A DNA stretch of 64,000 bases from Candidatus Poribacteria bacterium (GCA_003635315.1 PYJD01000023.1:134502-198501); one strand, 5' to 3'; positions 10,960 to 57,099 are shown, numbered from the stretch's first letter. The notes: generated by a model not told the origin, from the sequence alone. Made by a program: numbers and translations.

Positions 10960-11700
10960 ATGACGAATCAAAGAGTTGTTTTTGGCTTCATTTTACTTTG
11001 CATGTTCATGTGTGTTGTTTCCATTTCATTTGCTGGTACATGGCGGGATGATTTTGAAGATAAGGATACGAAAGAATGGGAAATCTTCAATCTTAATCGA
11101 CAAGTTGAAAAATGGTGGATTAATGATGACGAAGCAGTTGGTGAGATTTTTGAACCCGGATTTTGGAGTCTTTGGATGACGGGTGAAAACAACTGGCAGT
11201 TTTATTCTGTTAGGTGTGTTGTTAAACTAATTGATGAAAAAAACGATCCACCATATTTTGGTCTCACTCTTCATGACAGAGGTGAAGAAGGTGGACGATA
11301 TGTGTTTTATGTAGATTATTTAAGAGGGTTTGCTGTCATTGAAAAATGGGTGGCAAATGGCGGATCAGTACGGCAAAATTTTGTGGCTGAGAAAGATGTG
11401 TGGTATGAACTAAATGCATCTGTACAATTAGATCCATTAGATGAAGAATTAGCGGTTCTGGAGTTTAGCATAAAGAATGCTGATAGAAAAGATGGTAATC
11501 CTCTGGTTACGCTTACTGCACAAGATACAGACCCTATTGACAAAGGGCAAGTTAGCCTTGCCATAAGTAATGCTCGTGTACGGTATGATAATGTCGAAAT
11601 TTCTGGGACTAACATACCAAATGGTGGTCCCGGTAAACCTTTTCCTGTAAAACCACATGCAAAACTTGCAACCTCATGGGGTAGTATTAAGAAATATTAA
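10960..11700 (+). CDS. Secreted hypothetical protein (possibly a DUF1080/LamG-like beta-sandwich) ending in a TSWGSIKKY C-terminal motif
   Basis: AAGGAGAA RBS. Signal peptide MTNQRVVFGFILLCMFMCVVSISFA. No confident family assignment. The C-terminus KLATSWGSIKKY matches the motif on three other secreted proteins in the window. Confidence 0.5.
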   Translation: MTNQRVVFGFILLCMFMCVVSISFAGTWRDDFEDKDTKEWEIFNLNRQVEKWWINDDEAVGEIFEPGFWSLWMTGENNWQFYSVRCVVKLIDEKNDPPYFGLTLHDRGEEGGRYVFYVDYLRGFAVIEKWVANGGSVRQNFVAEKDVWYELNASVQLDPLDEELAVLEFSIKNADRKDGNPLVTLTAQDTDPIDKGQVSLAISNARVRYDNVEISGTNIPNGGPGKPFPVKPHAKLATSWGSIKKY

Positions 11701-11769
11701 AATACATATCAAGTAAGAACTTACCTGGTGTGTATCTTTTCTACATTTATCAGAAAAGTATTTTAAAAA

Positions 11770-13449
11770 ATGGTTAATAATACACATAGTTATTATATGT
11801 ATGAAATACTAAAAAATATAGTTATAGTTATCCTATCTATTTTAATTCCAAACCTAATAATACATGCTGAATCATTACCACATTTTACCGAAATTACGAC
11901 TGAATCAGGCTTAAACTTTATACACAATAACGGTGCATTTGGAGAAAAATATCTGCCTGAAACAATGGGATCGGGATGTGCATTTATTGACTACAATCAG
12001 GATGGTTGGGTGGACATCTTCTTAGTTAATTGTAAAGATTGGGAGAAACATAATACAGGCAAATCCCAAACACCAGCACTATTCCAAAACCAAAAAGATG
12101 GAACTTTCAAGGATGTTACTATTGAGGTCGGATTGAATATACAAGTTTATGGGATGGGTGTTGCCGTTGGAGACTATGATAATGATGGGGATGATGATAT
12201 ATACCTAAGTTGTCTATATGATGATAAGTTATTCCGGAACAACGGTGATGGAACTTTTAAAGATGTTACCGAAGAAGCAGGAATTACGAATCCCGGTTTC
12301 GGTACAAGTTGCGCATGGTTCGATTACAATTTGGACGGTCTATTGGATTTATACGTTGCAAATTATGTTGAATGGACAATTAAAACTGATATATATTGTA
12401 CCTTAGATGGTCAAAATAAATCTTATTGCACCCCTGAATCCTATTCTGGACAAGCGAGTATACTCTTTCGTAACCGAGGAAATGGAACATTTGTTGATGT
12501 CTCACGAATTGCTGGTGTAAGTGACCCCAAAAGCAAATCATTGGGTGTTTGTATACTTGATTATAATGCCGATGGTTTGCCAGATATCTTTGAAGCAAAT
12601 GATACGCAACCCAATAAGTTGTATCAGAATAATGGTGATGGCACGTTCATTGAAGTCGGCATGCTAACTGGAGTCGCATTTAATGAGAATGGTGTTGCTA
12701 CAGGGGCAATGGGGGTGGATGCTGGAGATTATGACAATAGCGGAAATGAAAGTCTCATTATAGGTAATTTTTCGAATGAAATGATCAACCTATATAAGAA
12801 CGAAGGTGATTTCTTTATTGATGATGCACCCATCGCAAAGATTGGTCAACCATCCTTGTTAACCCTAACATTTGGATGTTTCTTTTTCGATTTTGACCTT
12901 GATGGAAAACTTGACATTTTTACGACAAACGGTCACGTTGAGACGGATATAAATCTGATTCAGAGTAGAGTTTCATATCCACAACCTCCTCATCTATTTC
13001 GGAATGTAAACGGGAGTAGTTTTACTGATGTTATTCAGAAAGTTGGTAATGACTTGTTAAAACCTGTTGTTGGGAGAGGAACAGCTTATGGAGATATTGA
13101 TAATGATGGAGATCCTGATATACTTGTAACTACTTCGAATGGTCCTGTCCATTTATACCGCAACGATGGGGGGAATAAGCATAATTGGTTAAAAATTAAG
13201 CTTGTTGGTCAAAAAAGTAACCGGAACGGGTTGGGCGCACGAATTGAGGTGATATCAGCTACTGGTACCCAAACTCGAACTGTAAGAAGTGGTTCAAGTT
13301 ATTGTTCACAGAGTGAATTGACAGTTTTTATTGGTATCAAGAATGATCAAGTCATTGATAAAATCAAGGTAGAATGGCAAAATGGGAATACGGATATACT
13401 TGAGAATATAAAAGCAAATCAAGAAATTAGTATTAAAGAAAGTCTGTAG
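11770..13449 (+). CDS. FG-GAP repeat / ASPIC-UnbV (CRTAC1-family) secreted protein
   Basis: Repeated Ca-binding loops DxNxDGxxD (VGDYDNDGDDDIYL, FDYNLDGLLDLYVANY, ILDYNADGLPDIFEAN, YGDIDNDGDPDILV). C-terminal RNGLGARIEV...G is typical of the UnbV_ASPIC domain. Confidence 0.75.
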   Translation: MVNNTHSYYMYEILKNIVIVILSILIPNLIIHAESLPHFTEITTESGLNFIHNNGAFGEKYLPETMGSGCAFIDYNQDGWVDIFLVNCKDWEKHNTGKSQTPALFQNQKDGTFKDVTIEVGLNIQVYGMGVAVGDYDNDGDDDIYLSCLYDDKLFRNNGDGTFKDVTEEAGITNPGFGTSCAWFDYNLDGLLDLYVANYVEWTIKTDIYCTLDGQNKSYCTPESYSGQASILFRNRGNGTFVDVSRIAGVSDPKSKSLGVCILDYNADGLPDIFEANDTQPNKLYQNNGDGTFIEVGMLTGVAFNENGVATGAMGVDAGDYDNSGNESLIIGNFSNEMINLYKNEGDFFIDDAPIAKIGQPSLLTLTFGCFFFDFDLDGKLDIFTTNGHVETDINLIQSRVSYPQPPHLFRNVNGSSFTDVIQKVGNDLLKPVVGRGTAYGDIDNDGDPDILVTTSNGPVHLYRNDGGNKHNWLKIKLVGQKSNRNGLGARIEVISATGTQTRTVRSGSSYCSQSELTVFIGIKNDQVIDKIKVEWQNGNTDILENIKANQEISIKESL

Positions 13450-13462
13450 AAATATAACGGAT

Positions 13463-13888: not shown

Positions 13889-14170
13889 ATTTCTACAAAA
13901 TTTAAAATTAAATGAAGAAAAAATCTATATATAACATCTAATATTATCAAGTGCTACTTTTTAGCTCAAACTGTAAACCTATGATACAGAATATTGGCTA
14001 ACTATCAACATATTTCATTAATTAAAGATAGGTTTCCAAGTACAAATAATTATTGGTAGCAAATTAAGATAACATACATATACTACCAAGCACAAAATTG
14101 ATTTAAGATATTTAGATGACTTGAGTAAATCCTACTAAAAATTATAACCTTTATGAGAAGTATAAAATTA

Positions 14171-14580: not shown

Positions 14581-14740
14581 TAAATGACATAACACATCAA
14601 CCCGTTAGACATCATCATTCTGATAAATGGTATCATATTCTGGTTGACATAGATATGGAAATAATCATGATCAGAATAAATCTTATATGAATAATTCATG
14701 CTATTGGAATCGTTTTTCAATCCAAATTCACATTAAGACT

Positions 14741-17700
14741 ATGCGAATCGTAATTATCTTATTCTTTCTTCAATTTCTTATATTCTTAGGTAAAGTTGAT
14801 GCTAATCCTTGGAAGTGTGGCACACCTCTACTTTGTGAACGTTATGCCAATATTCAAGAGAATAGTTCTGAAAACATAATAAACGTTCCTGCAGCACCTG
14901 CCCCTCCTGTAAAATTGGGACAAGTAGAGAGATTTTATATCCATATTCCTGAAACTTCTGTAAATGCAACCTGTGTCTATATTGGCATTAATTGTTATAT
15001 TTATATTGATACAACTGTCAAGAACTTACTCACAGAAAATGAAGCGAAGAATATCACTGAGACTTTCGACCAGAAAATCTATACTGGTATTCAGGATTGG
15101 ATTGGATCAGAATTCAAACCCGGTATTGATCGGGATAATAAAATTACTATCTTATTACACGATGTTGGGATGAATAAATCGGGTCGTGATTATGGTGGGT
15201 ATTTCTCTCCCACAGATCTTCATCCAACCCATCCATCAAGTAATAGGCGCGATATTATCTATATGGATATCTATCAATTCAAAGAAAGAGCCAGACATAC
15301 ATTTTATAGTAGTTTAGCACATGAATTTGCACATTTGGTTAGTTGGTATCAAAATGGTGGTACAAATGATCAGCGCTGGTTAGAAGAGGGGTTAGCTTCA
15401 TTTGCAGAATGGGGTGTTTATGGCACTGTTCATACACTTTTCGTTGATAACTATCTCTCAAAACCGAATCTATCAGTTACAACTGCAAATACATCAGATG
15501 TATATTATGGTGCTGCCTTTATGTATCTCCTATACCTATATGAAAACCATGGGAGTAAGTCTATTATAAGGAGAATATCAGCAGAGGATAAACTGGGTTT
15601 AGAAGGGATAGGAAGATCCCTAAACGGCATAGAACTAATTGATACATTTATAAATTGGGGTATTACCAATTGGTTCAATAATCCTGCTTTAGGTTCAGAG
15701 TATAGTTATAGGAATCTTAGGAATAGAAGAATCAAAGCTAATATTCCAGTGATAACATCCTACCCATCAAGGCATAATAGAACTGTTGATAGTTGGGGGT
15801 TTCAATATTTCTTATACAAGAATCTTCCAGAAAATATGGAGATTTCATTACAAGGACATCCACAGGTTGATCTATATGCAAAGATGGTCTATTTATTACC
15901 AAATAACAAAGAACCAGTTGTTTTACCAATACATTCTATTCCAGAAAATACCTCAACATATTCAATTACTTTAGAAAAACTACAGCCAGAAGCTCAAATC
16001 CTTGTGGTTATCACCAGTCCCTATAAACAGCTTCTTACCAGCACCGTAATTCCTACAATAGATAAAAACCCTATCAACCTAAGTATTGATGATAATTTGC
16101 CTACACCAAATACCAATAACAGGTTTCGAATCTCATTACCAGAATCTGTCAAATACCCTCCCAGAAGTAAGACACAACCTTTAAACTTTCGAAATACGCC
16201 ATCCGGTATAATCCAATCAAATACATCAATACAAATAAAACCAAGAACACAACTTCATCTTTCCAGTAATTATCAAGATATCACTATAGTTAATGGATTT
16301 GCATTTACTACAAGTAAATGGGGATTGGAAGTATTCAGCTTAGGAAAAGATCTGACTAAGATAAGTGAAATTGAAACACCAGGTTCAGCAGGAAGTATAG
16401 CATCTGATGGAGAAAATGTATTCATTGCCGATGGTAAATCAGGAATACATTTGATTGATGTAAGTAAACCCCAACTCCCCAGAATTCTTAAAACGATAAA
16501 GGGATTTCAAGATGCAAGTTATATATATATAGCAAATGGAAATCTCTATGCCCTTGACACAATACGTGGGTTGTTGGTTTATAGATTAAACGACATATAT
16601 AACCTGGAGAATCCACATCCAAAAAGAACATTCATACCTACTGGAATTCCATTGAGTGTATCAACTAAGGGTGAGGATGTATACTTAAGTGATAATGCTG
16701 TTGGTGTATATATTCTCACGCCTGATCCTCTTGGAGGTTTCAATGTTAAAGGAACATATCCACGTGCTGTACTTGACTTTGAAATGAGTGATGACAATAT
16801 ACTTCTTATTTCTAACAACCTACATATTATAAATGTAGATGTTCCTGCTGAACCCAAACCGATCACTACATTAAATACACCAGGACTGGCTTCAAGTATA
16901 TACCGAACGCAAGACTTTCTATATCTTACTGATATACATGCAGGGTTTCACATTGTTAATATACGGAATCCTTTCAAACCCGAACTAATCACATCTCATC
17001 CTACAAACGGGTCAGCAAATAGTCTTTCTTTATGGAAAACTGATACCTCTGAAGAATATGTTTATATAGCAGATGGTTTAGGGGGCATTCAGACTTTCGA
17101 AATAACAGATCCCTATTCTCCGAAGTGGTTAACGCATTATGATGCTGGTGGTATTGTGTATGATCTTGATATAACTAATAATGAATCAAGAATTGCTATA
17201 GCAAATGGGAAAGCAGGTCTAAAAGTTATGGAATTGTCAGATCCGTATACAGGAAGTGTAATACAGGATCTTCCTTCAAATCATGAATTAGGAACACTAT
17301 GTGTCACCTTGACTGAGGATTTGGCTTTTACTGGATTCGAAGATGGTATGGAAGTCGTTGATATTACTTCAGGTGATATCCTTGTAAGAATTAACACCAA
17401 ACATCCAGTGTCTGAGATTGAGTTGATAGGTGATTATGCATATCTCTGTGCCGGTTCCCTTATTGTTGTAGACATCAGTAACATTGAATTGAGTAGAATT
17501 GTCTCTAACCGTAATCTGAATGGGAGTGTGTATAAGATAGATCATAATAACACTCATGCCTATATTGCTGCACTTGAGGGTGGAGTCCATATATTAGATA
17601 TCTCAAACCCATCTCTACCTCGACCAATACACCATTTCCAAACTGAAGGGGCAGCAACTAATGTTACCCTCTCCGATGATTTTATCTACATACTTGATAC

Positions 17701-18322
17701 ACACCTGGGTGTGATAAAACTTGATAATAGTGAACAAAATAATCTAAGAATCGTTTCAACTTACAAAGATACGACAATACCCATAGTTGCAAAAGTTAAA
17801 AACGATTTCCTATTCTTACTTGATGTCGAAAGTATGCAGGTCATTAATATCGATTCAATGCATCGAGAAATGCGATATACACAATTACATGCCCCTTCAG
17901 ATATGTTAGTCACTGATAATGCCATATATATCGCAGATTTATACCAACTTAATACATATCAAATTGATACAGATTCAAGTAATTTAAGTGTTGAAGACTA
18001 CACGGGAGAGGATGGGCTAACCCAAAAGGATTTGTCAAATGGTTCCTTCAATCAGCTATACCAAAACTATCCAAATCCATTTAATCCTGAAACATGGATA
18101 CCTATTACTCTTGCATCAGATACTGATTTCAGTCTATCAATCTACGATGAGAAAGGTATACTTGTCGCAATAAAACAATATGGAATTCATCCACAAGGAA
18201 AACATATCTTACACTGGGATGGTAGAAATACGAAGAATGAAAAGGTAGCAAGTGGTGTGTATTTTTATACTATTAATGCGGGGGGATTTAAAGCAACTCG
18301 GAAAATGGTTATCAGAAGATAG
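14741..18322 (+). CDS. Secreted HExxH zinc-metalloprotease-like protein with multiple LVIVD repeats and a T9SS-type C-terminal sorting domain
   Basis: Signal peptide MRIVIILFFLQFLIFLGKVDA. HEFAHLVSWYQ...EEGLASFAEW (HExxH + E). About 11 LVIVD-type repeats (GIHLIDVSKPQLPRIL, GFHIVNIRNPFKPELI, GVHILDISNPSLPRPI and others). C-terminus NYPNPFNPETWIPITL...SIYDEKGILV...WDGRN...ASGVYFYTINAGGFKATRKMVIRR has the por_Secre_tail pattern. The ORF-track start at 14687 is probably upstream of the true ATG at 14741. Confidence 0.75.
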   Translation: MRIVIILFFLQFLIFLGKVDANPWKCGTPLLCERYANIQENSSENIINVPAAPAPPVKLGQVERFYIHIPETSVNATCVYIGINCYIYIDTTVKNLLTENEAKNITETFDQKIYTGIQDWIGSEFKPGIDRDNKITILLHDVGMNKSGRDYGGYFSPTDLHPTHPSSNRRDIIYMDIYQFKERARHTFYSSLAHEFAHLVSWYQNGGTNDQRWLEEGLASFAEWGVYGTVHTLFVDNYLSKPNLSVTTANTSDVYYGAAFMYLLYLYENHGSKSIIRRISAEDKLGLEGIGRSLNGIELIDTFINWGITNWFNNPALGSEYSYRNLRNRRIKANIPVITSYPSRHNRTVDSWGFQYFLYKNLPENMEISLQGHPQVDLYAKMVYLLPNNKEPVVLPIHSIPENTSTYSITLEKLQPEAQILVVITSPYKQLLTSTVIPTIDKNPINLSIDDNLPTPNTNNRFRISLPESVKYPPRSKTQPLNFRNTPSGIIQSNTSIQIKPRTQLHLSSNYQDITIVNGFAFTTSKWGLEVFSLGKDLTKISEIETPGSAGSIASDGENVFIADGKSGIHLIDVSKPQLPRILKTIKGFQDASYIYIANGNLYALDTIRGLLVYRLNDIYNLENPHPKRTFIPTGIPLSVSTKGEDVYLSDNAVGVYILTPDPLGGFNVKGTYPRAVLDFEMSDDNILLISNNLHIINVDVPAEPKPITTLNTPGLASSIYRTQDFLYLTDIHAGFHIVNIRNPFKPELITSHPTNGSANSLSLWKTDTSEEYVYIADGLGGIQTFEITDPYSPKWLTHYDAGGIVYDLDITNNESRIAIANGKAGLKVMELSDPYTGSVIQDLPSNHELGTLCVTLTEDLAFTGFEDGMEVVDITSGDILVRINTKHPVSEIELIGDYAYLCAGSLIVVDISNIELSRIVSNRNLNGSVYKIDHNNTHAYIAALEGGVHILDISNPSLPRPIHHFQTEGAATNVTLSDDFIYILDTHLGVIKLDNSEQNNLRIVSTYKDTTIPIVAKVKNDFLFLLDVESMQVINIDSMHREMRYTQLHAPSDMLVTDNAIYIADLYQLNTYQIDTDSSNLSVEDYTGEDGLTQKDLSNGSFNQLYQNYPNPFNPETWIPITLASDTDFSLSIYDEKGILVAIKQYGIHPQGKHILHWDGRNTKNEKVASGVYFYTINAGGFKATRKMVIRR

Positions 18323-37864: not shown

Positions 37865-38221
37865 AGATTGAATTTTATAGTCAACAATAAAAATCTATTG
37901 TTTTATATTAAGGCATTTAGATTCTTGCCGTAACTGACTACAGAAAAGGCATCAGTTGGTGGTTAATACAATCCAAACACATCTCCTTACACAAACCCCT
38001 CTTCTCCGTGATTCTGATTAAATTAAAAAATAATGAAGAAAATCTATACACAAACATCTAAAGTAACATAAGTGAAAAATAAGGTTGAAATATCATTCCT
38101 AACAACCGGTAATGAGATCAAGGTATAACCATGAATCCTATACGAATTGCAGAACTAAGGACTGAGCATTTGAAGATGTATAAAAAAGGGAAGGAATTTC
38201 TAATCATATTTGATTGATTTC

Positions 38222-38470
38222 TACCCTCTTGTAGGTCGGGTAGAGGAACGAAACCCGACACGTGTTGATTGGATCTATCCTGGTGTGATTTGTACCTCAA
38301 CCCATATGTGTCAACTCAGTGATTACCTGTCTTGTAGGTCGGGTAGAGGAACGAAACCCGACGAATTCCATATGCGGATTCGGCGTTGATTTGGACACGT
38401 GTTGATTGGATCTATCCTGGTGTGATTCGTACCTCAACCCCATATGTGTCAACTTGGTGGTTTATAGTTG
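38222..38470. repeat. Two tandem copies of a ~105-170-bp palindromic (MITE/REP-like) element
   Basis: cttgtaggtcgggtagaggaacgaaacccgac ... acgtgttgattggatctatcctggtgtgattNgtacctcaacccatatgtgtcaact occurs twice. The 5' end (gggtagaggaac) and 3' end (gtacctcaaccc) are imperfect inverted repeats. Confidence 0.65.
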
Positions 38471-38499
38471 TCTGATATTGATGTCTTTAGTCCCGTCAA

Positions 38500-38600
38500 A
38501 TGCCACACGGTGAATGTCTAAATGACATTCATACCCACCGAATTCCACAAGCGGATTCGGTGTTGATTTCGGGGAATACTAAATAGAATTCATACCGTTG
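38500..38600. repeat. Hairpin repeats of the gaatgNN-loop-NNcattcataccc / ccgaattccacaagcggattcgg family
   Basis: ggtgaatgtctaaatgacattcataccc, then ccgaattccacaagcggattcggtgttgatttcgg, then gaattcataccgttgattccttgattcc. Related copies lie at 33020-33185, 39785-39850 and 45970-46000. Confidence 0.55.
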
Positions 38601-39203
38601 ATTCCTTGATTCCTTGATTTGGCACATTTGGCGTTGATTGGTACGGACTATATGTATTAATGTAATCTTACATCAATAACAAATGTAAATAAGTATAAAT
38701 TAGTATCACAAAATATAACTTTTTCCTTGACTCATGATTTTTATTATGTTACTATATATATTACAATAAAAACACCACTTGAAAAGTTGTTGTGAAACTT
38801 TCACAACAGTTGTGAATGGAAAATAAAATCTCAGATGTCTACAAACCTATACCAGATAAGGGTTTACACCACATATAACAAGTACAGAGCATAAAAATTA
38901 AAAAATAAAAATAAAATATAGGTTTTTCAGAAATATCTATAAACCCAATCTAAGACTGGCTTTAGGGCATTTTAAAACATGGTGTTTAAAAAAATGTGTT
39001 GTGAAAAGGCTATTTGTTATTACGAACTAAAGGAGAACTTTTAAGTCAACCCATGAACATACTACCGAAATTCAGTATATCTCACAAAATGATAAACAAA
39101 AAACCGAAATGATTACCCTTAATTGTTAGAACTTATGAGATATATACTACGAAGGAATCCACAAAGTAAACTTTTTTTATTTTTTAATAGAAAATCGTAA
39201 ATT

Positions 39204-39692
39204 GCCTGTAAACATAGATGGGGACAGACCTAACAGCGACTATACTAAAATTGGGGTTACAGAAAAAAGTTACGATTTCGTAACTTTTTACATAAATACA
39301 GAAAACTTTCTAATGACTATCCAATACTTTCAAATTAATCTTAAAAATAGCATCACCTATACCATTTCTGAGAGAGAAAGCTGTATGGATGGTTTATGGG
39401 TATGTCATCTAATTAGGTACACCCTAAAATTTTATGTTGCAATAATGAGAAATTATTATTTAGAAAATGTATTACAAATGTCTGTATCAGATATACCCCC
39501 AAAAAATATAAAAAATAAAAAAGTAGAAGGACACAAAATAACACAATTCAAGAATTCTTACTATTCTAAAAAAACACCGATGAACGCAGACTATGACAGG
39601 GCGGACAGCAGTTTTACTAATGACACAAAATGTGTCAAAAAGTGTAACATTTTTAACAAAATAAATAATATATATTACAAATGTGAAAATTG
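39204..39692 (+). repeat. Copy C of the dispersed ~480-bp non-coding element, ending ~330 bp upstream of the LamG gene
   Basis: Aligns end-to-end with the reverse complement of 2817-3290 at ~75-80% identity. Its 3' core gactatgacagggcggacagcagttttactaatgacacaaaatgtgtcaaaaagtgtaacatttttaac is shared with copies A and D. Confidence 0.6.
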
Positions 39693-40032
39693 AAAAGCCA
39701 ATAAAACAGAGGATTTTTATACTAAATTCTATATAATTAGTTCCCATTACGAACACTCTTTATTGTCGTTCTGAGGATGGATGGGAATGACATTAAGACT
39801 TTCATTCCCATCGAATTCTATACGCCGATTCGACCTTGATTTGGTAGGGACGATATGTTTATAAGGCGAAGTTTTGATACCTACAAGTACAAGAAATCAT
39901 TTGACTTTTCAAGGCAAATTTGCTATCCTTAAATATTGAAATAGTCCTATGTGTAAATAGGTTTAATATATGTTTTGCCTCTATTAGGATATATATGCTA
40001 AACAAGAATTATTATATAATTCAAGGATTAAT

Positions 40033-40812
40033 ATGAAATACAATATAAATAAAAGAAAGTGTTTTGCTTACATAATCGGTTTGTCTATCTTTATGTTCTC
40101 GGTCTCAATCTTCACTGGAATAGTAAATGCTGAAGAGCTTGTTTTACATTTGTCATTTGATGAGCTTAATGGAAAGGTATCCAAAGATACATCTAAATTT
40201 CGAAATGATGTAACCTTCACAGGATCACCTAAACTTGTCGACGGTAAATTTGGTAAAGCAATTGATTTTGATGGGAAAACTCATGGAGAAGTTCCTGATC
40301 ATTCCAGTATTGATATTGTTGATGGAATTACAATAGAATTCTGGGCAAAATTAAGAGCTGGGGCTGATGTCCAAACTGGTGTTGAAAAAGGTCCCGCATG
40401 GGGTGCCGGTTTATATACACTCGCTGCCTTCTATCGTGGTGGTTCTATTTTGCAATTCTTTGATTTGCCAGATAACTGTGATGATGAAAATGTTGGCGGA
40501 AGTATACTTGATAATACTTGGCATTTTATGGCTGGTACATGGGACGGTAATACCATCAAGCTTTATATTGATGGTGTTTTAGATAAAGAATTAGAGTGTA
40601 AAGGTGAACTTATTCCAAACAATGGAGCATTATATATCGGTGCAAGGGGTGGAAAAGAACGGTACGTCACCGGGGCACTTGATGAAATTAAGATGTATAA
40701 CTATGCTCTAACTGAGGATGAGTTACTTACGGATATGGACAATCCATTACTTTTAAACGTAGAACCAAAAGGAAAACTCACAACTACCTGGGCACGGCTT
40801 AAGGCGAAATAA
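40033..40812 (+). CDS. Secreted concanavalin-A-like lectin/glucanase (LamG-type) domain protein ending in TTTWARLKAK
   Basis: Signal peptide MKYNINKRKCFAYIIGLSIFMFSVSIFTGIVNA. LamG pattern LVLHLSFDE...GKFGKAIDFDG...ITIEFWAKL...NTWHFMAGTWDGNTIKLYIDGV. Shared C-terminal motif. Confidence 0.65.
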   Translation: MKYNINKRKCFAYIIGLSIFMFSVSIFTGIVNAEELVLHLSFDELNGKVSKDTSKFRNDVTFTGSPKLVDGKFGKAIDFDGKTHGEVPDHSSIDIVDGITIEFWAKLRAGADVQTGVEKGPAWGAGLYTLAAFYRGGSILQFFDLPDNCDDENVGGSILDNTWHFMAGTWDGNTIKLYIDGVLDKELECKGELIPNNGALYIGARGGKERYVTGALDEIKMYNYALTEDELLTDMDNPLLLNVEPKGKLTTTWARLKAK

Positions 40813-40821
40813 GGCTACTTC

Positions 40822-41385
40822 ATGAAGAATATTTTTTATATTATACCATTATTATTTATTGCATGTTATCTAACTGCATGTTCTCTTCTTCCAGGTGCTA
40901 ATCAATCAGGGGAAAATGTTGCTGTACTTACGACTGAAAAAGGCACCATCGTGATTGAGTTTTATGACGAATCTGCCCCTGTGGCAGTTGAAAACTTCAG
41001 AAAATTAATCAGTATGAAATTCTATGATGGATTAACATTCCATCGCATTGTCAACCAACCAGGATTAAATATTGTTCAGGGAGGGTGTCCAAAAGGAGAT
41101 GGAACTGGCGACCCAGGTTGGAAAATTGTTGATGAATATACCAATCCAAATCAGCGGAAACACATAAGAGGAACTGTCGCTATGGCTCGAGCAAGCATGC
41201 CAAACTCCTCTGGATGTCAGTTTTACATCTGTCTAAAACCACAGCCTCATCTTGATGGACAATATACTACCTTTGGTGGTGTAATTCAAGGGATGCATGT
41301 CGTCGATATGTTAGCTATAGGCGACAGAATCACCACTATACGTTTGGAGGCTAAGTCGAAATATGTTAAGGCAGCAGAGAATTAA
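40822..41385 (+). CDS. ppiB: Cyclophilin-type peptidyl-prolyl cis-trans isomerase, lipoprotein
   Basis: Lipobox LTACSLL. Motifs FHRIVNQPGLNIVQGGCPKGDGTG and MARASMPNSSGCQFYI. Confidence 0.85.
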   Translation: MKNIFYIIPLLFIACYLTACSLLPGANQSGENVAVLTTEKGTIVIEFYDESAPVAVENFRKLISMKFYDGLTFHRIVNQPGLNIVQGGCPKGDGTGDPGWKIVDEYTNPNQRKHIRGTVAMARASMPNSSGCQFYICLKPQPHLDGQYTTFGGVIQGMHVVDMLAIGDRITTIRLEAKSKYVKAAEN

Positions 41386-42004
41386 TGGATATTATTACAT
41401 CTTTTGGTCTATAATATGTGTCTTTCTTGTGGGTTTATCCGGATGTGCACAACAAGAAAAACAATCATCTTCAACTACTGATACAAGTGAAACTACTCAA
41501 CAAACAGATACTACTCAAGAGGTATCCACACCCGAAACCCAGGTTCAGAAACCCACTCCTCAGACTAAACCTGCAATTGATCCAGCAAATGCAATTGCCG
41601 TGATAGAAACTGAAAAAGGAAATATTGAGTTTGAATTTTTTGCTTCTGATGCTCCAATCACTGCAAAGGCATTTATAAAACATGCAAATCTTAACTACTA
41701 TAAAAACGAAAAATTTCATCGCGTTGAAGAACTAATCGTTCAAGCTGGGTCGGCTTTTGTCGATGGTACGCTACCTATTGAAAAAGGTAATCATCAACTC
41801 GTTAAAGGTGTCGTGTTAATGGCGAAAGAGGAAGGTACAACCGTTTCTGATGCAGATGAATTCTTTATTTGTAAAGATGCAATTTTATTAGATGATGACT
41901 TTACTACGCTTGGTAGAGTTATTAAAGGGCTTGATGTATTAGATAAACTTGTAGAAAATGATAAAATAATTAATATCTCAATCCGAGAACGTGATAATGA
42001 ATAA
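41363..42004 (+). CDS. Divergent cyclophilin-like PPIase-fold lipoprotein
   Basis: Lipobox LVGLSGCAQ, then a T/Q-rich linker. AVIETEKGNIEFEFFASDAPITAKAFIKH...KFHRVEELIVQAG...GVVLMAKEE...EFFIC. It overlaps the previous cyclophilin gene by 23 nt. Confidence 0.6.
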   Translation: MLRQQRINGYYYIFWSIICVFLVGLSGCAQQEKQSSSTTDTSETTQQTDTTQEVSTPETQVQKPTPQTKPAIDPANAIAVIETEKGNIEFEFFASDAPITAKAFIKHANLNYYKNEKFHRVEELIVQAGSAFVDGTLPIEKGNHQLVKGVVLMAKEEGTTVSDADEFFICKDAILLDDDFTTLGRVIKGLDVLDKLVENDKIINISIRERDNE

Positions 42005-49139: not shown

Positions 49140-49200
49140 GGATCATTCTCTAATTCCATACATTCATTGATGTAAATCTGCATCAACACCCACAATATAA

Positions 49201-50408: not shown

Positions 50409-51704
50409 ATGCACTGTAATACATCATTGACACATATGCAGTTTAGTCGCAATACTATATTCTTTTTTATCTGCTGCATATCAATGTTTATTATCAGTTG
50501 TGGCGATGATGGATCATTACCATTAACTGAAAGCACAGAACCTATTGATGACATTTTTACGGTAAGTGAGTGGGATAAAATTAAAAGTCTCTCTCCACTA
50601 CCAGATAACCCACCACCCAGTCCAACAAACCGAGTTGCGGATAACGCTAATGCTTCGAAGTTAGGACAGATGTTTTTCTTTGATGAAAGATTCTCAAAAG
50701 ACGCAACTATTGCTTGTGCCACATGCCACTCTCCATTTCATGGATTTGCTGATGTTGAAGCAACATCATTAGGAAACGGAAGAGGGACCAGAAATGCTCC
50801 CACATTATTAAATGCTGCATACAACAATTGGCAATTTTGGGATGGACGTGCTGATTCACTTTGGGCACAAACCATTTTTGCATTAGAAGGTGAGAAGGAA
50901 CAAGCTGGCAATCGCCTACAGTTTTCACATTTAGTCTATAAACATTATAAGGAAGATTATGAATCAGTTTTCGGATCTTTACCAGATTTAACTGATACAA
51001 ATCGATTTCCTAAAAATGGTAAACCAGGAGATTATCAGTTTGATAATATGTCAGATGCTGATAAAATTGCAATCAATTCAATACTCGCAAATATAGGTAA
51101 AGCAATCGAAGCATACGAAAGACTATTAATTAGTCGAAATTCCCCTTTTGATCAATATGTAGCCGGGGATGTAAACGCAATCGGAATTCAGGCTAAACAG
51201 GGATTAAAGGTTTTTATTAGAGAAGGGAGTTGTATTGAGTGTCATAACAGTCCAACTCTTACTGACAATAAATTCCACAATGTCGGTCTTCCACAAGGGA
51301 ATCTCCCCTTAGATTATGGTAGATCTGATGGGATCAAACAACTGTTAGAAAACCCATTTAATGGACTTGGTATCTATAGTGATAATACGGAGATACCTAA
51401 ACTTATACTTGACTCATTAGCAGGATCAATTGAAACTGATGGTCAATTTAAAACACCATCATTAAGAAACGTAGCTCTAACTGCACCCTACATGCATACT
51501 GGAGATTTTCCTACATTGAAATCCATTCTGAGTTTCAATAGAAATGATGTTACAACAGCAGAATATGTGGGAATAGCTGAATCTACACGCAACTCAGGTA
51601 TTCTAACACAACAAGAGATGAGTGATTTAGTCGAATTTCTACAAACATTAACGGGTGAATTACCACCAGAACATCTCCTACAAAAGCCTAAACTACCAGA
51701 ATAA
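50409..51704 (+). CDS. Di-haem cytochrome c peroxidase (CCP/MauG family) lipoprotein
   Basis: Lipobox FIISCG. Haem 1 CATCHSPFHGF...GTRNAPTLLNAAYN..QFWDGRA; haem 2 GSCIECHNSP; conserved FKTPSLRNVALTAPYMHTG. Confidence 0.85.
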   Translation: MHCNTSLTHMQFSRNTIFFFICCISMFIISCGDDGSLPLTESTEPIDDIFTVSEWDKIKSLSPLPDNPPPSPTNRVADNANASKLGQMFFFDERFSKDATIACATCHSPFHGFADVEATSLGNGRGTRNAPTLLNAAYNNWQFWDGRADSLWAQTIFALEGEKEQAGNRLQFSHLVYKHYKEDYESVFGSLPDLTDTNRFPKNGKPGDYQFDNMSDADKIAINSILANIGKAIEAYERLLISRNSPFDQYVAGDVNAIGIQAKQGLKVFIREGSCIECHNSPTLTDNKFHNVGLPQGNLPLDYGRSDGIKQLLENPFNGLGIYSDNTEIPKLILDSLAGSIETDGQFKTPSLRNVALTAPYMHTGDFPTLKSILSFNRNDVTTAEYVGIAESTRNSGILTQQEMSDLVEFLQTLTGELPPEHLLQKPKLPE

Positions 51705-51864
51705 AGATAGGTATTGTTGTACAATTAGATGTCATTAATATACATCTGTTTATATAAGTCTTAGACACCAATTATACTCTTGATCATAGTTATACCTAAA
51801 CGCCAATCTTATCTGTATTATCCAACATTTCTTTGTAATATACAGATCTATTTAGACTAATGAT

Positions 51865-52716
51865 ATGAGACATTCAATTTTTTCTTACAGCTATTTTATA
51901 ACTATCTTCATATTGTATATAGTCTTAATTGGTTGTAACAGTGAAGATCCTACAGACTCACTCATTGAGACTAATTTGTTGAATGAAGATACAATCATCG
52001 ACACAGATGAAATGGTCTTCATACCAGCAGGTGAAGTAACTATTGGTACTAATGAGAAAACTGAGGATACCTTTGGGAATGAAATTGATCAACAAACTGT
52101 TTTCGTTAAATCATTCTATATTGATAAGTATGAAGTCACCAATGGTCAGTACAAAGAATTCCTCATAGATACAGGACACAGAAAACCAAAGTTTTGGGAT
52201 AATCCAAATCTTAATGCACAGAATCAACCTGTTGTTGGTGTTAACTGGGAAGATGCTGAATCCTATGCAAATTGGGCTGGTAAGAGATTACCAACCGATA
52301 TTGAATGGGAAAAAGCTGCAAGAGGTATGGATGGTCGTCTGTATCCATGGGGGAATGCGTTCAATACATCATTTGGAAACTTTGATGACAATAGTAAAAT
52401 GGATGGAAAATTAGATGGGTACGCTTTACAGACTGCTGCTATTGGTAGTTATCCTAAAGGTGTAAGTCCATTTGGAATACATGATATGGCAGGAAATGTA
52501 TGGGAATGGGTAGAAGGTACTATTGATAGTGGTTTCAAGATACCAATTCCTGAAAATGGTAAGAACATTATGACAAATGGTAGAGTCTACACGATTAGAG
52601 GTGGATCTTGGACGAATGGTCATGGTGACACCCGAACCACAGTTTTTTATATATATCCTGCACAATGTAGTGATCATAGTAGTTCTGTTGGATTTCGTTG
52701 TGCTAAATCACTATAA
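51865..52716 (+). CDS. FGE-sulfatase (DUF323) domain lipoprotein lacking the FGE catalytic Cys pair
   Basis: Lipobox LIGCNSE. YEVTNGQYKEF, RLPTDIEWEKAARG, GNVWEWVEG, RGGSW and a GFRCAKS tail. No LCHxxYC motif. Confidence 0.8.
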   Translation: MRHSIFSYSYFITIFILYIVLIGCNSEDPTDSLIETNLLNEDTIIDTDEMVFIPAGEVTIGTNEKTEDTFGNEIDQQTVFVKSFYIDKYEVTNGQYKEFLIDTGHRKPKFWDNPNLNAQNQPVVGVNWEDAESYANWAGKRLPTDIEWEKAARGMDGRLYPWGNAFNTSFGNFDDNSKMDGKLDGYALQTAAIGSYPKGVSPFGIHDMAGNVWEWVEGTIDSGFKIPIPENGKNIMTNGRVYTIRGGSWTNGHGDTRTTVFYIYPAQCSDHSSSVGFRCAKSL

Positions 52717-52774
52717 CTTATCATAACTAACAACGGTATATATATATAATTCTGTGCTATTCTGAGTTTAGATT

Positions 52775-53686
52775 ATGAAAGAAAATAGTTCAAAGTCTTT
52801 TCTCTTTTTAACTATATGCTGTATGGTTATTATTCTCTTTAATAATGGATGTACTGAAAAGAATCTTAAAGAGGATGAAAATCAGATAACAATGGGTAGT
52901 ATAGAATTGACTGAGAAACCTGAAGAAAAAATAGAAATGGAAGAAACGATAGAAATTCCTGATGGCATGGTATATGTTCCTGCAGGAGACTTCATTATGG
53001 GTAGTGATCCAGATGTTGATCCTCATACAGATCAACTCGATGAAATACCACAACATAAGGTATATTTGGATGCCTTTTTTATTGACAAGTATGAAGTATC
53101 GAATGATGACTATACCAAGTTTGTTAAAGCTACAGGACACCGAAATTCCATTTTTTGGGACAATCCGAAATTCAATCATCCTGATGCACCTGTCGTCGGG
53201 GTAACATGGGGAGACGCTGTTGCTTATGCAGAATGGGTCGGAAAACGACTTCCAACAGAAGCAGAATGGGAAAAAGCAGCAAGAGGAACTGATGCACGCA
53301 TTTGGCCGTGGGGTAATGAATTTGATCCGAAGAAATGCAATTTTGATGATGAAGGAAAATTTGATGGACATCTCGATGGGTTTGCAACTGCTGCCCCTGT
53401 AGATAGTTTTCATAATGGGGCAAGTCCATATGGCGCGCTTAACATGGTTGGTAATGTAGCGGAATGGGTGGCTGACTGGTTTGACACGGATTATTATATT
53501 GTCAGTCCAAGAGAAAATCCAAAAGGACCAAAAAATAGTGGTATGGGGAAGAAATCATGGCGTGGAGCAAGTTGGTTTGCTGGCGAAGATCAAGTCCGTT
53601 GTGCATTTAGAGAATATGATGACATTGTCGCAAGCGGACAGATTCTCGGGTTTCGTTGTGCGAAAGATGTACCACAAGAAGAATAA
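52775..53686 (+). CDS. FGE-sulfatase (DUF323) domain lipoprotein lacking the FGE catalytic Cys pair
   Basis: Lipobox FNNGCTEK. YEVSNDDYTKF, RLPTEAEWEKAARG, GNVAEWVADW, RGASW and a GFRCAKD tail. Confidence 0.8.
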   Translation: MKENSSKSFLFLTICCMVIILFNNGCTEKNLKEDENQITMGSIELTEKPEEKIEMEETIEIPDGMVYVPAGDFIMGSDPDVDPHTDQLDEIPQHKVYLDAFFIDKYEVSNDDYTKFVKATGHRNSIFWDNPKFNHPDAPVVGVTWGDAVAYAEWVGKRLPTEAEWEKAARGTDARIWPWGNEFDPKKCNFDDEGKFDGHLDGFATAAPVDSFHNGASPYGALNMVGNVAEWVADWFDTDYYIVSPRENPKGPKNSGMGKKSWRGASWFAGEDQVRCAFREYDDIVASGQILGFRCAKDVPQEE

Positions 53687-53735
53687 CCATATCAAATTGT
53701 TGGATGAATACTAATTATAGCATGTATTCATTAGA

Positions 53736-55001
53736 ATGATGAAGAAACCATTAACTTCTATCGGGATAATTAATTGCTTATTATTAATCATTATCGCATG
53801 TGGTGAAGATACAACCTTCAATAATGACATCGATAATGAGTTTGAAGTAGATATTTTCACAGAACGTGAATGGGCAGTAATACAACGTTTATCTCCATTG
53901 CCTATTGAACCACCTCCAAGTCATACAAATCGATTTGCTGATAATCCTGATGCAGCAATATTGGGTCAGAAGTTCTTCTTTGATGAACGATTCTCAAAGG
54001 ATGGAACAGTAGCATGTTCGACTTGCCACTCCCCATTTTACGGGTTCGCAGATGCAGAAGCGACTTCATTAGGGGCTGGTAGAGGAACAAGAAATGCACC
54101 AACACTATTAAATGTAGCCTACAATAAGTGGCAATTCTGGGATGGTCGGGCAGATACACTATGGTCCCAAGCTCTTATCGCATTAGAAGGGGATACAGAA
54201 CAAGCAGGGACACGACTACAGTTTGCACATCTTATAAACGAATATTATAAGTCAGAATATATCAAGGTTTTCGGTGAATTTCCTAATTTAACAGATACAA
54301 ATAAATTCCCAAAGGATGGAAAACCGGGAGATCAACAATATGACAATATGGCAGAGAAAGATAAGGTTTCGATTAACACTGTCTTCGCTAATATCGGTAA
54401 GGCAATTGAAGCCTATGAACGACTCTTGATCAGTAGGAATGCTCCCTTCGACAAGTATGTGGCAGGTGATAGAAATGCAATTGGAGAAGAAGCTAAACGG
54501 GGATTAAAAACCTTCATTGGAAAGGGTGTCTGTATTCTATGTCATGATAATCCTAATTTCACTGACAATGAGTTCCACAATCTTGGTGTACCACAGGGAC
54601 AACTTTCTACGGATACAGGACGGTATGATGGTATAAAACAATTAATAGATAATCCTTTCAATGGAGGGGGAATTTATAGTGATGAACCTACTGTCTCTCA
54701 ACGAATTATTGATTTTCTTGAACCCACATCATTACATCAAGGGCAATTTAAGACCCCAACACTAAGAAACGTTGCACTTACTGCTCCCTATTTTCATACG
54801 GGTGGATTCCCAACGTTGGCATCAGTCATTGAATTTAACAATGCTGGGGGTGTTCCGTCAGGTTTTGTTGGTACCAGAGAGGGAACACTTGAACCCTTAC
54901 ATCTTACCGTACAGGAAGCAGAAGAATTAGTTGAATTCCTTCTAACACTTACTGGTGAATTACCAGCTGAGTATCTATTAAGAAAACCCATCCTTCCATA
55001 G
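53736..55001 (+). CDS. Di-haem cytochrome c peroxidase (CCP/MauG family) lipoprotein, paralogue of 50409..51704
   Basis: Lipobox IIIACGED; CSTCHSPFYGF and GVCILCHDNP haem motifs; FKTPTLRNVALTAPYFHTG. About 60% identical to the first CCP over the catalytic core. Confidence 0.85.
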   Translation: MMKKPLTSIGIINCLLLIIIACGEDTTFNNDIDNEFEVDIFTEREWAVIQRLSPLPIEPPPSHTNRFADNPDAAILGQKFFFDERFSKDGTVACSTCHSPFYGFADAEATSLGAGRGTRNAPTLLNVAYNKWQFWDGRADTLWSQALIALEGDTEQAGTRLQFAHLINEYYKSEYIKVFGEFPNLTDTNKFPKDGKPGDQQYDNMAEKDKVSINTVFANIGKAIEAYERLLISRNAPFDKYVAGDRNAIGEEAKRGLKTFIGKGVCILCHDNPNFTDNEFHNLGVPQGQLSTDTGRYDGIKQLIDNPFNGGGIYSDEPTVSQRIIDFLEPTSLHQGQFKTPTLRNVALTAPYFHTGGFPTLASVIEFNNAGGVPSGFVGTREGTLEPLHLTVQEAEELVEFLLTLTGELPAEYLLRKPILP

Positions 55002-55385
55002 ATTATTTCATACCATGAAATCCACAGAATTATTACTGAACTTACACTTTTATTCACTGCCTAATAACAATCTAATGTAGAGTATTTAGTGATTACTATA
55101 GTTAGTAATTATTTGACTTTAATTACATAAATTGATACAATTATATACAGGTGTTGATAGATTATTTCTAAAATATTCTTAGATTTTCTGTCAGTAGTCA
55201 GATATAGAAATATCGAAGATCTTAGTATCAAATTCGATATTTTAGCGTTTTCTGCGGATTAACCCTAAATATCAGACTTACCGCATAAACAAATTCTGAG
55301 TTACGAATAACTATCTTTGTAACGCTCTATATTAACCTAAGGAATTAAAATATTAAATTCATTTTCATATAATAAGGAGTGTAAA

Positions 55386-56204
55386 ATGAAAAAAGTGATA
55401 TTTACTATGGCTATGGTAATAGGGTATTCTTTAACTCTATTAACTTCTCCAATGCCAAGTATTGCATTACCACTTGGAGAAGTAGCCATATTTACTGAAC
55501 AATCCGGTTGGATCGCTCAGAATGCAGCACAGAGAGAAGGGGAAGTATTGGCGGACCTGCTAAAGAAACCTACTGATGTTGTTACTCTGACAGACAAAGA
55601 AATTGGTGATTGGGCTAAAGAACGTACAGATAACGGTATAGCTGATATTATCGTTACCTTCGGTTGGTTCCCAACAACCCTATACCCACCCGGTAATCAA
55701 AAGCCAGATGGTTCCGTGGCTGAAGATTTCCTTGAAGGGGGAAATGTTTTCCTTAACACTGCTGACTATATCTTTTATGTCACACAAGGTGGTGGTGCCA
55801 ATGGTGAACAAGGTTTGAAAAACATGATGGACATTAATGCTGACATGTGGTCAGGTGGTTCTGGGATCAAACCTACTGCTGATGGGAAAAAATATACACC
55901 AAGTCTGGGTAATTTTACTTCAGAACGTACATTCAAAGCAGCACAGATTACTGATCCATGGGAAGTTGAAGTCACCTTAGGCGATACTGGATCCGGTAAT
56001 ATCGATCCAGCAATCGTCCATGATACTGAAACCGGTGGACGTATAGGGATTGCTTTTCAAGAACCAAATAACGCTGGACTCCCACGAGGTAAGGTCTTAG
56101 CAGAGATGATTGATAACTTCCTTTTCGAAGTTCTTGGCCCTCAAGCTGTTGATCCGCAACAGAAAGCTACAACCACATGGGGACTTTTAAAATCTGATTT
56201 TTAA
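55386..56204 (+). CDS. Secreted protein of unknown function, 272 aa, ending in ATTTWGLLKSDF
   Basis: ATAAGGAGTG RBS; signal peptide MKKVIFTMAMVIGYSLTLLTSPMPSIA. Conserved blocks FGWFPTTLYPPGN and NTADYIFYVTQGGGANGEQGLK. No family recognised. Confidence 0.5.
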   Translation: MKKVIFTMAMVIGYSLTLLTSPMPSIALPLGEVAIFTEQSGWIAQNAAQREGEVLADLLKKPTDVVTLTDKEIGDWAKERTDNGIADIIVTFGWFPTTLYPPGNQKPDGSVAEDFLEGGNVFLNTADYIFYVTQGGGANGEQGLKNMMDINADMWSGGSGIKPTADGKKYTPSLGNFTSERTFKAAQITDPWEVEVTLGDTGSGNIDPAIVHDTETGGRIGIAFQEPNNAGLPRGKVLAEMIDNFLFEVLGPQAVDPQQKATTTWGLLKSDF

Positions 56205-56280
56205 TTGGAATTATTAACGCTATTATGTAATAATAATGATTCAATATATCCTTGTATTATAACTCTCAAAGGAGAATTTA

Positions 56281-57099
56281 ATGAACTTGAGAAAATTGAT
56301 ATTCGCATTTACCATCCTTTTTGTTTTCGTCGCTACTACATCCAGTTGGGCAGGACTTGGCGATGTTGCTATCTTCAGTGAAGCAACAGGATGGATATCA
56401 AAAGATAATGCTGACATTCAGCGCGCTATTGTATTTGATAATTTAAAGGACGAAGTGGCTTCTGTTGGTGATGTTGTCTATAAAACCGATGAAGAAATTG
56501 GTCCTTGGGCAGAAGATAGAATTGATGATGGGAAAGCTGACATTATCATCGTTTTTGGTTGGTTCCCAACTACTCTATATACACCTGGGAATTCACAGGT
56601 TGATGATTCAATCGCAGAACGTTTCCTATACGGTGGGAATATCATTCTAAATTGTGCTGACTATGCTTTCTATGTTACACAAGGTGGTGGTGCAAATGGT
56701 GAGAATGGTTTGAAAACCATCATTAATATCAATGCTGATATGTGGGGTGGTGGTACGGCTATTACACCTACTGATGATGGAGAGAAATATACACCTTCCT
56801 TGGTGAATTTTACTTCTGAACGTCCTTTTAAAGCAGACCAAATTGTTGATCCATGGAGTGTTGAAGCAAAATTCGGTGATAACGGCGATACCTTCTTTGA
56901 TCCAGGTATCATTAAGTTGAATGATAGCAGTGGACGTGTTGGTATCTGTATGCAAGAACCAAATAGAGGCGACTTGCCACGCGGTCAAGTCTTAATTGAA
57001 ATGATCAGTTTCATTTCAATGCAAGATGATGTTGCTACTCCGGTTGAACCAAATGGTAAAACTTCTACGACATGGGGTACACTTAAAGCTTCTTGGTAA
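56281..57099 (+). CDS. Tandem paralogue of 55386..56204 (272 aa, secreted), ending in TSTTWGTLKASW
   Basis: AAAGGAGAA RBS; signal peptide MNLRKLIFAFTILFVFVATTSSWA; ~55% identical to the upstream paralogue, including FGWFPTTLYTPGN and NCADYAFYVTQGGGANGENGLK. Confidence 0.5.
   Translation: MNLRKLIFAFTILFVFVATTSSWAGLGDVAIFSEATGWISKDNADIQRAIVFDNLKDEVASVGDVVYKTDEEIGPWAEDRIDDGKADIIIVFGWFPTTLYTPGNSQVDDSIAERFLYGGNIILNCADYAFYVTQGGGANGENGLKTIININADMWGGGTAITPTDDGEKYTPSLVNFTSERPFKADQIVDPWSVEAKFGDNGDTFFDPGIIKLNDSSGRVGICMQEPNRGDLPRGQVLIEMISFISMQDDVATPVEPNGKTSTTWGTLKASW

Follow-up and report, generated by a model that had tools for sequence, protein, structure and literature searches.

A near-invariant C-terminal tag on unrelated exported proteins of Candidatus Poribacteria and its relation to type IX secretion-type C-terminal domains

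Why should exported proteins with unrelated bodies end in almost the same residues? The question is raised by a 64,000-nucleotide stretch of Candidatus Poribacteria bacterium DNA from a metagenome-assembled genome (GCA_003635315.1, PYJD01000023.1:134502-198501; hereafter the window, by which this whole stretch is meant), in which an original prediction, made from the sequence alone, had noticed a short C-terminal motif on four signal-peptide-bearing proteins, encoded from positions 10960, 40033, 55386 and 56281, and had proposed it as a candidate sorting or processing tag. A six-frame scan of the window with the motif [TS][TS]W[GA].[LI]K gives exactly four matches, all on the plus strand and none elsewhere, each lying 2–3 codons from the stop of a signal-peptide-bearing open reading frame (ORF) of 245–280 codons. 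Re-translation reproduces the four ORFs as predicted, and the scan bears out the claim that no other window protein has this tail. Related Poribacterial loci show that the tag is kept at the C-terminus of many further exported proteins and that, on others, it stands directly in front of a type IX secretion system (T9SS)-type C-terminal domain (CTD). While this pattern is strongly supported, we can only infer its mechanism.

The tag in the window and across Poribacteria

The conserved element is longer than first seen and begins ∼10 residues before the tryptophan with V-[EDK]-P-x-x-K. The tails of the four window proteins, 17–18 residues in length, share the form V-[EDK]-P-x-x-K-x-x-[TS]-[TS]-W-[GA]-x-[LI]-K followed by 2–3 residues, and the full motif of ∼20 residues is [LFT]-[AP]-V-[ED]-P-x-x-K-L-[AT]-T-T-W-[GA]-x-[LIV]-K followed by 1–4 residues. 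All four proteins carry type I signal peptides, as read from the sequence (SFA-G, VNA-E, SIA-L and SWA-G, the hyphen marking the cleavage site). Comparison of the bodies with the tail removed agrees with the predicted lack of similarity, the only related pair being the paralogues at 55386 and 56281 (56% identity, E = 1e-94); when the tail is included it is the sole similarity between families. A 45-nt degenerate DNA pattern of the extended motif matches three of the four tails, with 0.00 matches expected from 100 shuffles, and third codon positions under identical residues agree at just 2/8 to 4/6 between tails, which argues for selection on the peptide and not on a DNA repeat or element.

A taxonomic scan with the degenerate DNA pattern against one genome per species, covering 185,579 species, returned at least 119 loci; among those listed, 117 are titled Poribacteria (∼70 metagenome-assembled or single-amplified genomes) and two 'uncultured bacterium'. 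The tag is restricted to Poribacteria among the labelled matches listed, although it may also occur outside the phylum. Within these loci the strict motif lies 1–10 residues from the stop in 144/144 matches, and a looser motif lies within 10 residues of it in 177 of the 180 matches found in 532,000 ORF residues, so that the check on motif position in related genome bins, which had been suggested with the original prediction, comes out in its favour. When a tag profile was run with HMMER in an exhaustive search of 1.84 billion cluster representatives (50% identity clusters), 478 clusters came out at E ≤ 1e-3. In the 148 profile matches examined, namely the best 150 of the 478 less two proteins already collected, the motif lies within 10 residues of the end in 143 and the other five resemble read-through calls. 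The logo from this independent set reads [LFT]-[AP]-V-[ED]-P-x-x-K-L-[AT]-T-T-W-[GA]-x-[LI]-K, in which V, K, W and K are fully or almost fully conserved (142–143 of the 143 sequences, each representing a different 50%-identity cluster).

Where the motif is the literal C-terminus (tail-only proteins), the tryptophan is invariant (183/183), and 1–4 residues follow the final lysine, three in 50% of cases and never none (312 non-redundant tails). Arginine is the most frequent last residue, aromatic last residues being a minority. Homologues of the 55386 protein are likewise Candidatus Poribacteria proteins, and the tag is kept in 118 of 120 of them, down to 50% body identity and nearly always with three residues after the last lysine. 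We regard the tag as an undescribed element within C-terminal sorting and anchoring signals: Pfam and NCBIfam hold no record of it, the tag profile matched PDB sequences only at chance level (E above 1), and literature searches for a prior description found nothing relevant.

Two unusual occurrences were seen alongside. A PD40/TolB-like β-propeller fragment of 222 aa (P0264) carries two tags, one internal (VEPMGKLKTMWGKLK) and one terminal (SSSGKFTATWGWIKNIW), and is the only two-copy case seen. Three viral-classed contigs from IMG/VR (L122, L123 and L124; GC 33–36%) encode LamG-like proteins ending in the tag, one tag protein on them having a 30-residue extension beyond it; these contigs may be misclassified low-GC Poribacterial DNA or may hold prophage-borne copies.

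The tail-bearing ORFs (n = 177) fall into 24 clusters that are unrelated by BLAST, with a median length of 260 aa and a 5–95% range of 210–290. By a crude hydrophobicity test, a signal-peptide-like N-terminus is present in 96% of them vs 34% of neighbouring ORFs, in line with the enrichment that the original prediction proposed to look for; true lipoboxes are rare among the carriers. Their bodies match Laminin_G_3, CBM9, CBM_4_9, NPCBM, F5/8 type C, GH43_C2 (ConA-like), DUF3108-like or DUF4960 families (PF13385, PF06452, PF02018, PF08305, PF22633, PF17851, PF21347, PF16324), or nothing, and one family, that of the 55386 protein, has a GATase1-like α/β fold. The carriers are thus mostly single non-catalytic modules of lectin or carbohydrate-binding type. 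We also looked for the two patterns that would speak against a tag: the motif proves to be common neither at internal positions nor on proteins without signal peptides, and its carriers are spread over several Pfam families and two or more folds and do not share one C-terminal domain family. A tag-like C-terminal motif on unrelated signal-peptide proteins, as originally proposed, is therefore upheld as strictly C-terminal, phylum-wide and outside the known sorting-signal models.

The junction with the T9SS-type C-terminal domain

The window had been said to encode a T9SS-type CTD as well, and both PF18962 (aa 1128–1209) and PF13860 (aa 1141–1198) are indeed found on the ORF at 14687-18322. The tail was on that account taken for a second, distinct tag beside the CTD. 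This part of the original prediction has to be revised, as elsewhere the same element is found directly N-terminal to the CTD. One of the three 'internal' matches of the looser motif belongs to an FG-GAP/ASPIC protein (L059) that reads ...VVTSVEATGKLSTTWGKVKATEV-FQNYPNPFNPETWIPY...RKMWLMK, with the tag followed by Por_Secre_tail/FlgD_ig; the junction between motif and CTD is exemplified by ...VEATGKLSTTWGKVKATEV joined to FQNYPNPFNPETWIPY. Six-frame reading of ∼1 Mb of Poribacterial DNA gives nine CTD starts, with the tag in front of two (L059 and L052) and a degenerate copy in front of one. A length-limited search with a motif-plus-CTD segment listed 120 matches, 118 of which have a recognisable CTD start, and among these a W-type tag precedes the CTD in 13/118 and an L/F-type variant (e.g. 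SVEARGKKLVTLGQIKRTQLFQNYPNPF) in ∼17/118. The passengers of such proteins, some of which are named Poribacteria, are ASPIC, WD40 and NHL, and the motif-then-CTD carriers comprise L059, L052, P0284-P0286, P0290, P0294, P0295, P0297, P0298, P0300, P0305, P0314, P0355 and P0360. CTDs without the tag read ...TPKETALLPNYPNPF. The 14687-18322 protein lacks the tag ahead of its CTD (...NGSFNQLYQNYPNPFNPETWIPI), although this CTD is of the same QNYPNPF subtype as those behind the tag elsewhere in Poribacteria.

The geometry of the junction is fixed, with exactly five residues between the final lysine and QNYPNPF in 32/32 motif-plus-CTD sequences. PF18962 begins at the Q of QNYPNPF, and the motif therefore lies outside the CTD model; tail-only proteins end where the CTD would start. 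Copies in front of the CTD accept L or F in place of W (KKLVTLGQIKRTQLFQNYPNPF; P0296, P0299, P0301, P0311, P0340, P0392 and similar), which suggests that the terminal form of the motif is under stricter constraint than the pre-CTD copy. Since the motif stands directly before the CTD at a fixed spacing, the tag, which the window proteins carry without the CTD, would be a piece of, or a partner to, the CTD system. One protein with a 55386-family body (P0110) carries a dockerin plus CTD in place of the tag, and the L120 locus also encodes a cohesin-dockerin-CTD protein; together these indicate that an attachment module followed by a CTD is an arrangement native to this lineage. No CTD remnants are found downstream of tail-only genes, and in the window the next gene follows within 10–80 bp. 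Tail-only genes are thus not decayed CTD genes, and their origin by truncation is ruled out.

The L120 locus also holds, at 2480-4330, an FG-GAP/ASPIC gene split by one in-frame stop (LAWP-stop-GIVE, where homologues have S), with the tag and CTD left as a separate ORF of 109 aa. The stop is present in an ENA assembly and in a Logan assembly, which may or may not be independent of each other, and the split gene may represent a pseudogene, a strain variant or read-through. Several short database proteins consisting of motif plus CTD only are probably similar calling artefacts.

Structural models place the tag outside both of its neighbours. In the AlphaFold2 (AF2) model of the 55386 protein (54-sequence alignment) the body has a predicted local distance difference test (pLDDT) score mostly of 80–98 and residues 255–272 fall below 50, and in that of a motif-plus-CTD protein (34-sequence alignment) the CTD sandwich is mostly above 90 and the motif below 50, low pLDDT not being proof of disorder. 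The models are consistent with the tag being a flexible linear motif outside both neighbouring domains. The values below 50 in both contexts speak against a role as a structural strand of the carrier or of the CTD.

A candidate attachment peptide and the alternatives

In Bacteroidota, PorU cleaves the CTD from T9SS cargo and the C-terminus so exposed is joined to anionic lipopolysaccharide (A-LPS) in a sortase-like manner (PMC4560394), and in short CTDs a cleavage-site motif is found 6–11 aa upstream of CTD motif B (PMC11969387). The Poribacterial tag is physically linked to CTDs of its own lineage at just the junction where CTDs are cut in characterised cargo. We therefore consider, with roughly even confidence, that the tag is a peptide for anchoring or attachment within the CTD pathway and that small cargo carries it in 'pre-processed' form. 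The motif would be the C-terminal end of the mature exported protein, encoded in two ways: between passenger and CTD in large β-propeller cargo (FG-GAP/ASPIC, WD40, NHL), and as the literal C-terminus in small cargo proteins with a single domain (∼260 aa), most of them lectins or carbohydrate-binding modules (CBM), a group that includes all four window proteins. In CTD cargo it would become C-terminal only once the CTD is removed, and by analogy with Bacteroidota cleavage where motif and CTD meet would yield ...TTWGx[LIV]K(x1-4)-COOH, the same C-terminus as that of tail-only proteins, which would be born 'processed'. After Sec export the motif would serve as a flexible peptide for docking or attachment, and a single common partner in the envelope, either a receptor or a PorU-like transpeptidase joining the C-terminus to a surface polymer, would recognise it; the lectin-like module would thereby be held on the cell. 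The CTD, where present, would supply translocation and the tag attachment. CTD cleavage at the junction, the partner, the surface location and the passage of tail-only proteins across the outer membrane are all elements that we infer.

A bolder version of this proposal is a phylum-specific sorting or anchoring system, in which a 20-residue non-hydrophobic 'VEPxGKLxTTWGxLK-xxx' is read by a dedicated receptor or transpeptidase on tens to hundreds of lectin-like proteins per genome, downstream of or without a CTD. We put this forward tentatively, as a possibility of somewhat less than even likelihood.

The comparison with the T9SS type A CTD (PF18962/TIGR04183) shows both why the tag may belong to this pathway and how it differs from the CTD itself. 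Both are C-terminal and found on Sec-exported proteins of many unrelated families, the tag adjoins the CTD where PorU cuts Bacteroidota cargo, and one passenger family carries either the tag or a dockerin plus CTD. However, the CTD is a β-sandwich of 70–100 residues (motifs B, D and E), whereas the tag has ∼20 residues and most of its carriers have no CTD. PorU cleavage in Porphyromonas gingivalis is described as sequence-independent (PMC4804311), whereas the tag is nearly invariant. Pfam and NCBIfam scans of the four window proteins at E ≤ 1 gave no CTD match (the positive control, 14687-18322, gave PF18962 and PF13860), and the tag is not part of the CTD module, lying outside PF18962 and not packed on the domain in the AF2 model.

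Several observations weigh against an attachment peptide of the CTD pathway. Clustering of 1,283 ORFs around tail genes (119 loci plus the window) revealed no recurring protease or sortase candidate; the recurring neighbours are only generally abundant Poribacterial families (CTD/β-propeller, TPR, FGE-sulfatase, Gfo/Idh/MocA, PhyH and methyltransferase), and no candidate for a dedicated sortase, protease or receptor was found in the window or recurs in the 119 related loci. Motif-plus-CTD proteins are a minority, with one in-frame internal case in ∼180 motif matches in the loci. Por/T9SS structural genes were reported absent from Poribacteria single-cell genomes (Kamke et al. 2014; PMC3909097), so that CTD cleavage and surface attachment are assumptions for this phylum. 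Tail-only proteins also have no CTD for passage through the outer membrane and may be periplasmic. The caveats given above on pLDDT and on occurrence beyond the phylum count on the same side.

It is also conceivable, though in our view unlikely, that the tag works as a C-terminal sorting signal in its own right, mechanistically separate from the CTD, served by dedicated machinery and analogous to PEP-CTERM, LPXTG or GlyGly-CTERM, and that motif-plus-CTD proteins are occasional fusions. Tail-only proteins far outnumber the motif-plus-CTD form, their invariant W, set against the L or F accepted in front of the CTD, suggests a stricter constraint of their own, and the residue or residues that always follow the final lysine are compatible with a scissile bond. 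Like the PEP-CTERM, PGF-CTERM and GlyGly-CTERM signals, the tag is a short lineage-restricted C-terminal signature on many unrelated secreted proteins, and it even holds a V-E-P tripeptide. PGF-pre-PGF sets a precedent for placing a conserved element immediately ahead of a sorting module that can be cleaved off. However, the invariant spacing to QNYPNPF and the recurrence of the junction on unrelated passengers (ASPIC, WD40, NHL) point to a unit with a function rather than to fusion by chance, and no candidate processing gene came to light in the window or the related loci. The tag also lacks the transmembrane helix and the basic cluster that all known sortase-type signals share, including the hydrophobic transmembrane segment and basic cluster of exosortase, archaeosortase and rhombosortase signals. 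In place of the PEP-CTERM helix, its VEP is followed by xxKL[AT]TTWGx[LI]Kxxx, the first 12 residues of which are polar, β-prone and sequence-specific, and the four proteins have no NCBIfam match to PEP-CTERM. Features of LPXTG and GlyGly signals with a transmembrane helix and charged tail are absent from the four proteins and from the 143-cluster consensus, again without an NCBIfam match in the four. The original view that the tag falls outside the described classes thus stands, since it shows the defining features of none of CTD, PEP-CTERM, LPXTG and GlyGly-CTERM. Nor does it resemble the β-signal of outer-membrane β-barrels, which ends in an aromatic residue (usually Phe), the bodies being soluble LamG, CBM or α/β domains and R the most frequent last residue. 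A cargo peptide of encapsulins or microcompartments (C-terminal G-x-L-K) is ruled out by the Sec signal peptides of the carriers.

A more doubtful alternative is that the tag mimics dockerin in minimal form and docks lectin or CBM modules non-covalently, for example by β-strand addition, into a cohesin-like or other scaffold of several proteins, and so serves as an assembly and not a sorting signal. This would fit carriers that are almost all single non-catalytic binding modules of 210–290 aa, the dockerin of P0110 exactly at the tag position, and the cohesin/dockerin proteins in the window (35020-36330) and at L120. Dockerin modules are likewise C-terminal appendages on unrelated extracellular modules, can sit between passenger and CTD, and can occupy the tag's position within the 55386 family; in contrast to the 20-aa tag, a dockerin is a folded domain of 60–70 aa, built on a duplicated Ca-binding loop-helix motif, with a cohesin partner, and PF00404 has no match in the four window proteins (the positive control at 35020-36330 matches PF00404 and PF00963). 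Read as an extended strand, the motif would have conserved residues on either face and a small G/A following W, as donor strands do. The C-terminal lysine of Braun lipoprotein and the donor strands of chaperone-usher and type V pili are tethers that act through protein termini. The tag recalls them in its invariant lysine near the C-terminus and its extended β-prone segment with a small middle residue, but its lysine is never last, it has no lipobox and there is no sign of an incomplete acceptor fold. Against scaffold docking, no acceptor was found and AF2 shows no strand propensity; it also overlaps with attachment through the CTD pathway and differs from it mainly in the kind of partner.

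We think it improbable that the tag has no targeting role and is instead a structural or stability element (a protease-resistant cap or folding aid), a site for a periplasmic, PDZ-read quality-control protease of C-termini, or a relic of CTD loss. The C-terminal position, the preferred distance of three residues to the carboxylate in 50% and the frequency of basic or aromatic last residues could be taken in its favour. However, a relic would decay, whereas V, K, W and K are kept across unrelated folds; CTD remnants are missing downstream, with the next window gene close behind and only nine CTD starts in ∼1 Mb; and no packing of the motif against its carrier domain is predicted. Finally, chance or a DNA-level artefact (an intergenic repeat, terminator or gene-calling overlap) is refuted for practical purposes by the lack of expected matches in shuffled sequence, by the differing third codon positions and by the conservation of the tag in hundreds of protein clusters and ∼70 genomes.

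The window genes, their neighbours and the meaning of the tag

The tag-bearing genes of the window and the CTD discussed above are collected in the Table.

Table. Tag-bearing genes, their tags and the T9SS-type CTD in the window (each C-terminal sequence is followed by the stop codon)
Feature	Position	Strand	Basis
Gene, 246-aa exported protein, tag at end (...PVKPHAKLATSWGSIKKY)	10960..11700	+	translation
Tag of the 10960 protein, VKPHAKLATSWGSIK-KY; variant in which K replaces E/D and S replaces T	11647..11697	+	
Gene, 259-aa exported LamG (Laminin_G_3) protein, tag at end (...NVEPKGKLTTTWARLKAK)	40033..40812	+	PF13385
Tag of the LamG protein, VEPKGKLTTTWARLK-AK	40759..40809	+	
Gene, 272-aa exported protein, class I glutamine-amidotransferase-like α/β body, tag at end (...AVDPQQKATTTWGLLKSDF)	55386..56204	+	AF2 and Foldseek
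Tag of the 55386 protein, VDPQQKATTTWGLLK-SDF	56148..56201	+	
Gene, tandem paralogue of 55386, 272 aa (...PVEPNGKTSTTWGTLKASW)	56281..57099	+	sequence comparison
Tag of the 56281 protein, VEPNGKTSTTWGTLK-ASW	57043..57096	+	
T9SS-type CTD (Por_Secre_tail/FlgD_ig) of the 1211-aa LVIVD-repeat protein (gene 14687-18322)	18068..18319	+	PF18962, PF13860

The 10960 protein has a weak full-length likeness to the ConA-like fold of DUF1080/3-keto-disaccharide hydrolase, with PF06439 matching over residues 27–214 at E = 0.35 only, and its tail-bearing homologues in other Poribacteria comprise one carrier cluster and many matches of the ARFDNVEISG...KLATTWG type. PF13385 covers aa 80–230 of the LamG protein (E = 7.8e-24), which belongs to the largest carrier cluster (88 ORFs). 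The best Foldseek matches to the body of the 55386 protein are GATase1 domains (E ∼1e-4, TM 0.4–0.5), and its paralogue at 56281 matches, at 100% identity, an NCBI record titled 'hypothetical protein C6497_08205 [Candidatus Poribacteria bacterium]'.

These two GATase1-like paralogues close a same-strand run (50409-57099) in which they lie directly downstream of a CCP_MauG di-haem peroxidase (50409), two lipoproteins with FGE-sulfatase domains (51865 and 52775) and a further CCP_MauG (53736). A database homologue (P0064) has an FGE-sulfatase domain fused to a tag-bearing 55386-type body, and FGE-sulfatase ORFs adjoin tail genes in 15 of 120 sequences (119 loci plus the window), which suggests a functional link. 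The exported protein at 35020-36330 consists of a cohesin followed by a C-terminal type I dockerin (PF00963 and PF00404), and non-lipoprotein exported proteins of the window thus bear three kinds of C-terminal module: dockerin, CTD and tag.

On the 3' side of the LamG gene, two genes for lipoproteins of the cyclophilin-type peptidyl-prolyl isomerase (PPIase) family follow directly (40822-42004), the first 10 bp past the stop; the tag itself has a near-invariant proline. Upstream, the gene-free stretch at 37865-40032 holds a cluster of intergenic direct repeats (38227-38650) that includes TCTTGTAGGTCGGGTAGAGGAACGAAACCCGAC in two exact copies 103 nt apart, a 47-nt pair of 98% identity 137 nt apart and a 37-nt family in three copies. 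The repeats match no tRNA or Rfam family, and tRNA and Rfam scans of the whole window likewise found nothing.

As dominant but uncultivated sponge symbionts, Poribacteria are believed to depend on surface and secreted proteins when they interact with host glycans. Hundreds of their small exported proteins of lectin- or CBM-like type bear this near-invariant tag, which offers a simple sequence rule for predicting the surface or envelope proteome of the phylum. Neither Pfam nor NCBIfam contains the motif and its carriers are annotated 'hypothetical protein'; a small hidden Markov model would improve annotation at once. The tag also gives a handle on a question raised in 2014, namely how CTD-bearing proteins are processed in a phylum in which no Por/T9SS genes were found, and it is a possible example of an attachment signal that is separable from the translocation domain. 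If a phylum-specific anchoring system of the kind outlined above does exist, 'cross the outer membrane' (CTD) and 'stay attached' (tag) would be two modular signals, and this would help to explain the surface proteome of a phylum with many CTD proteins and no reported T9SS.

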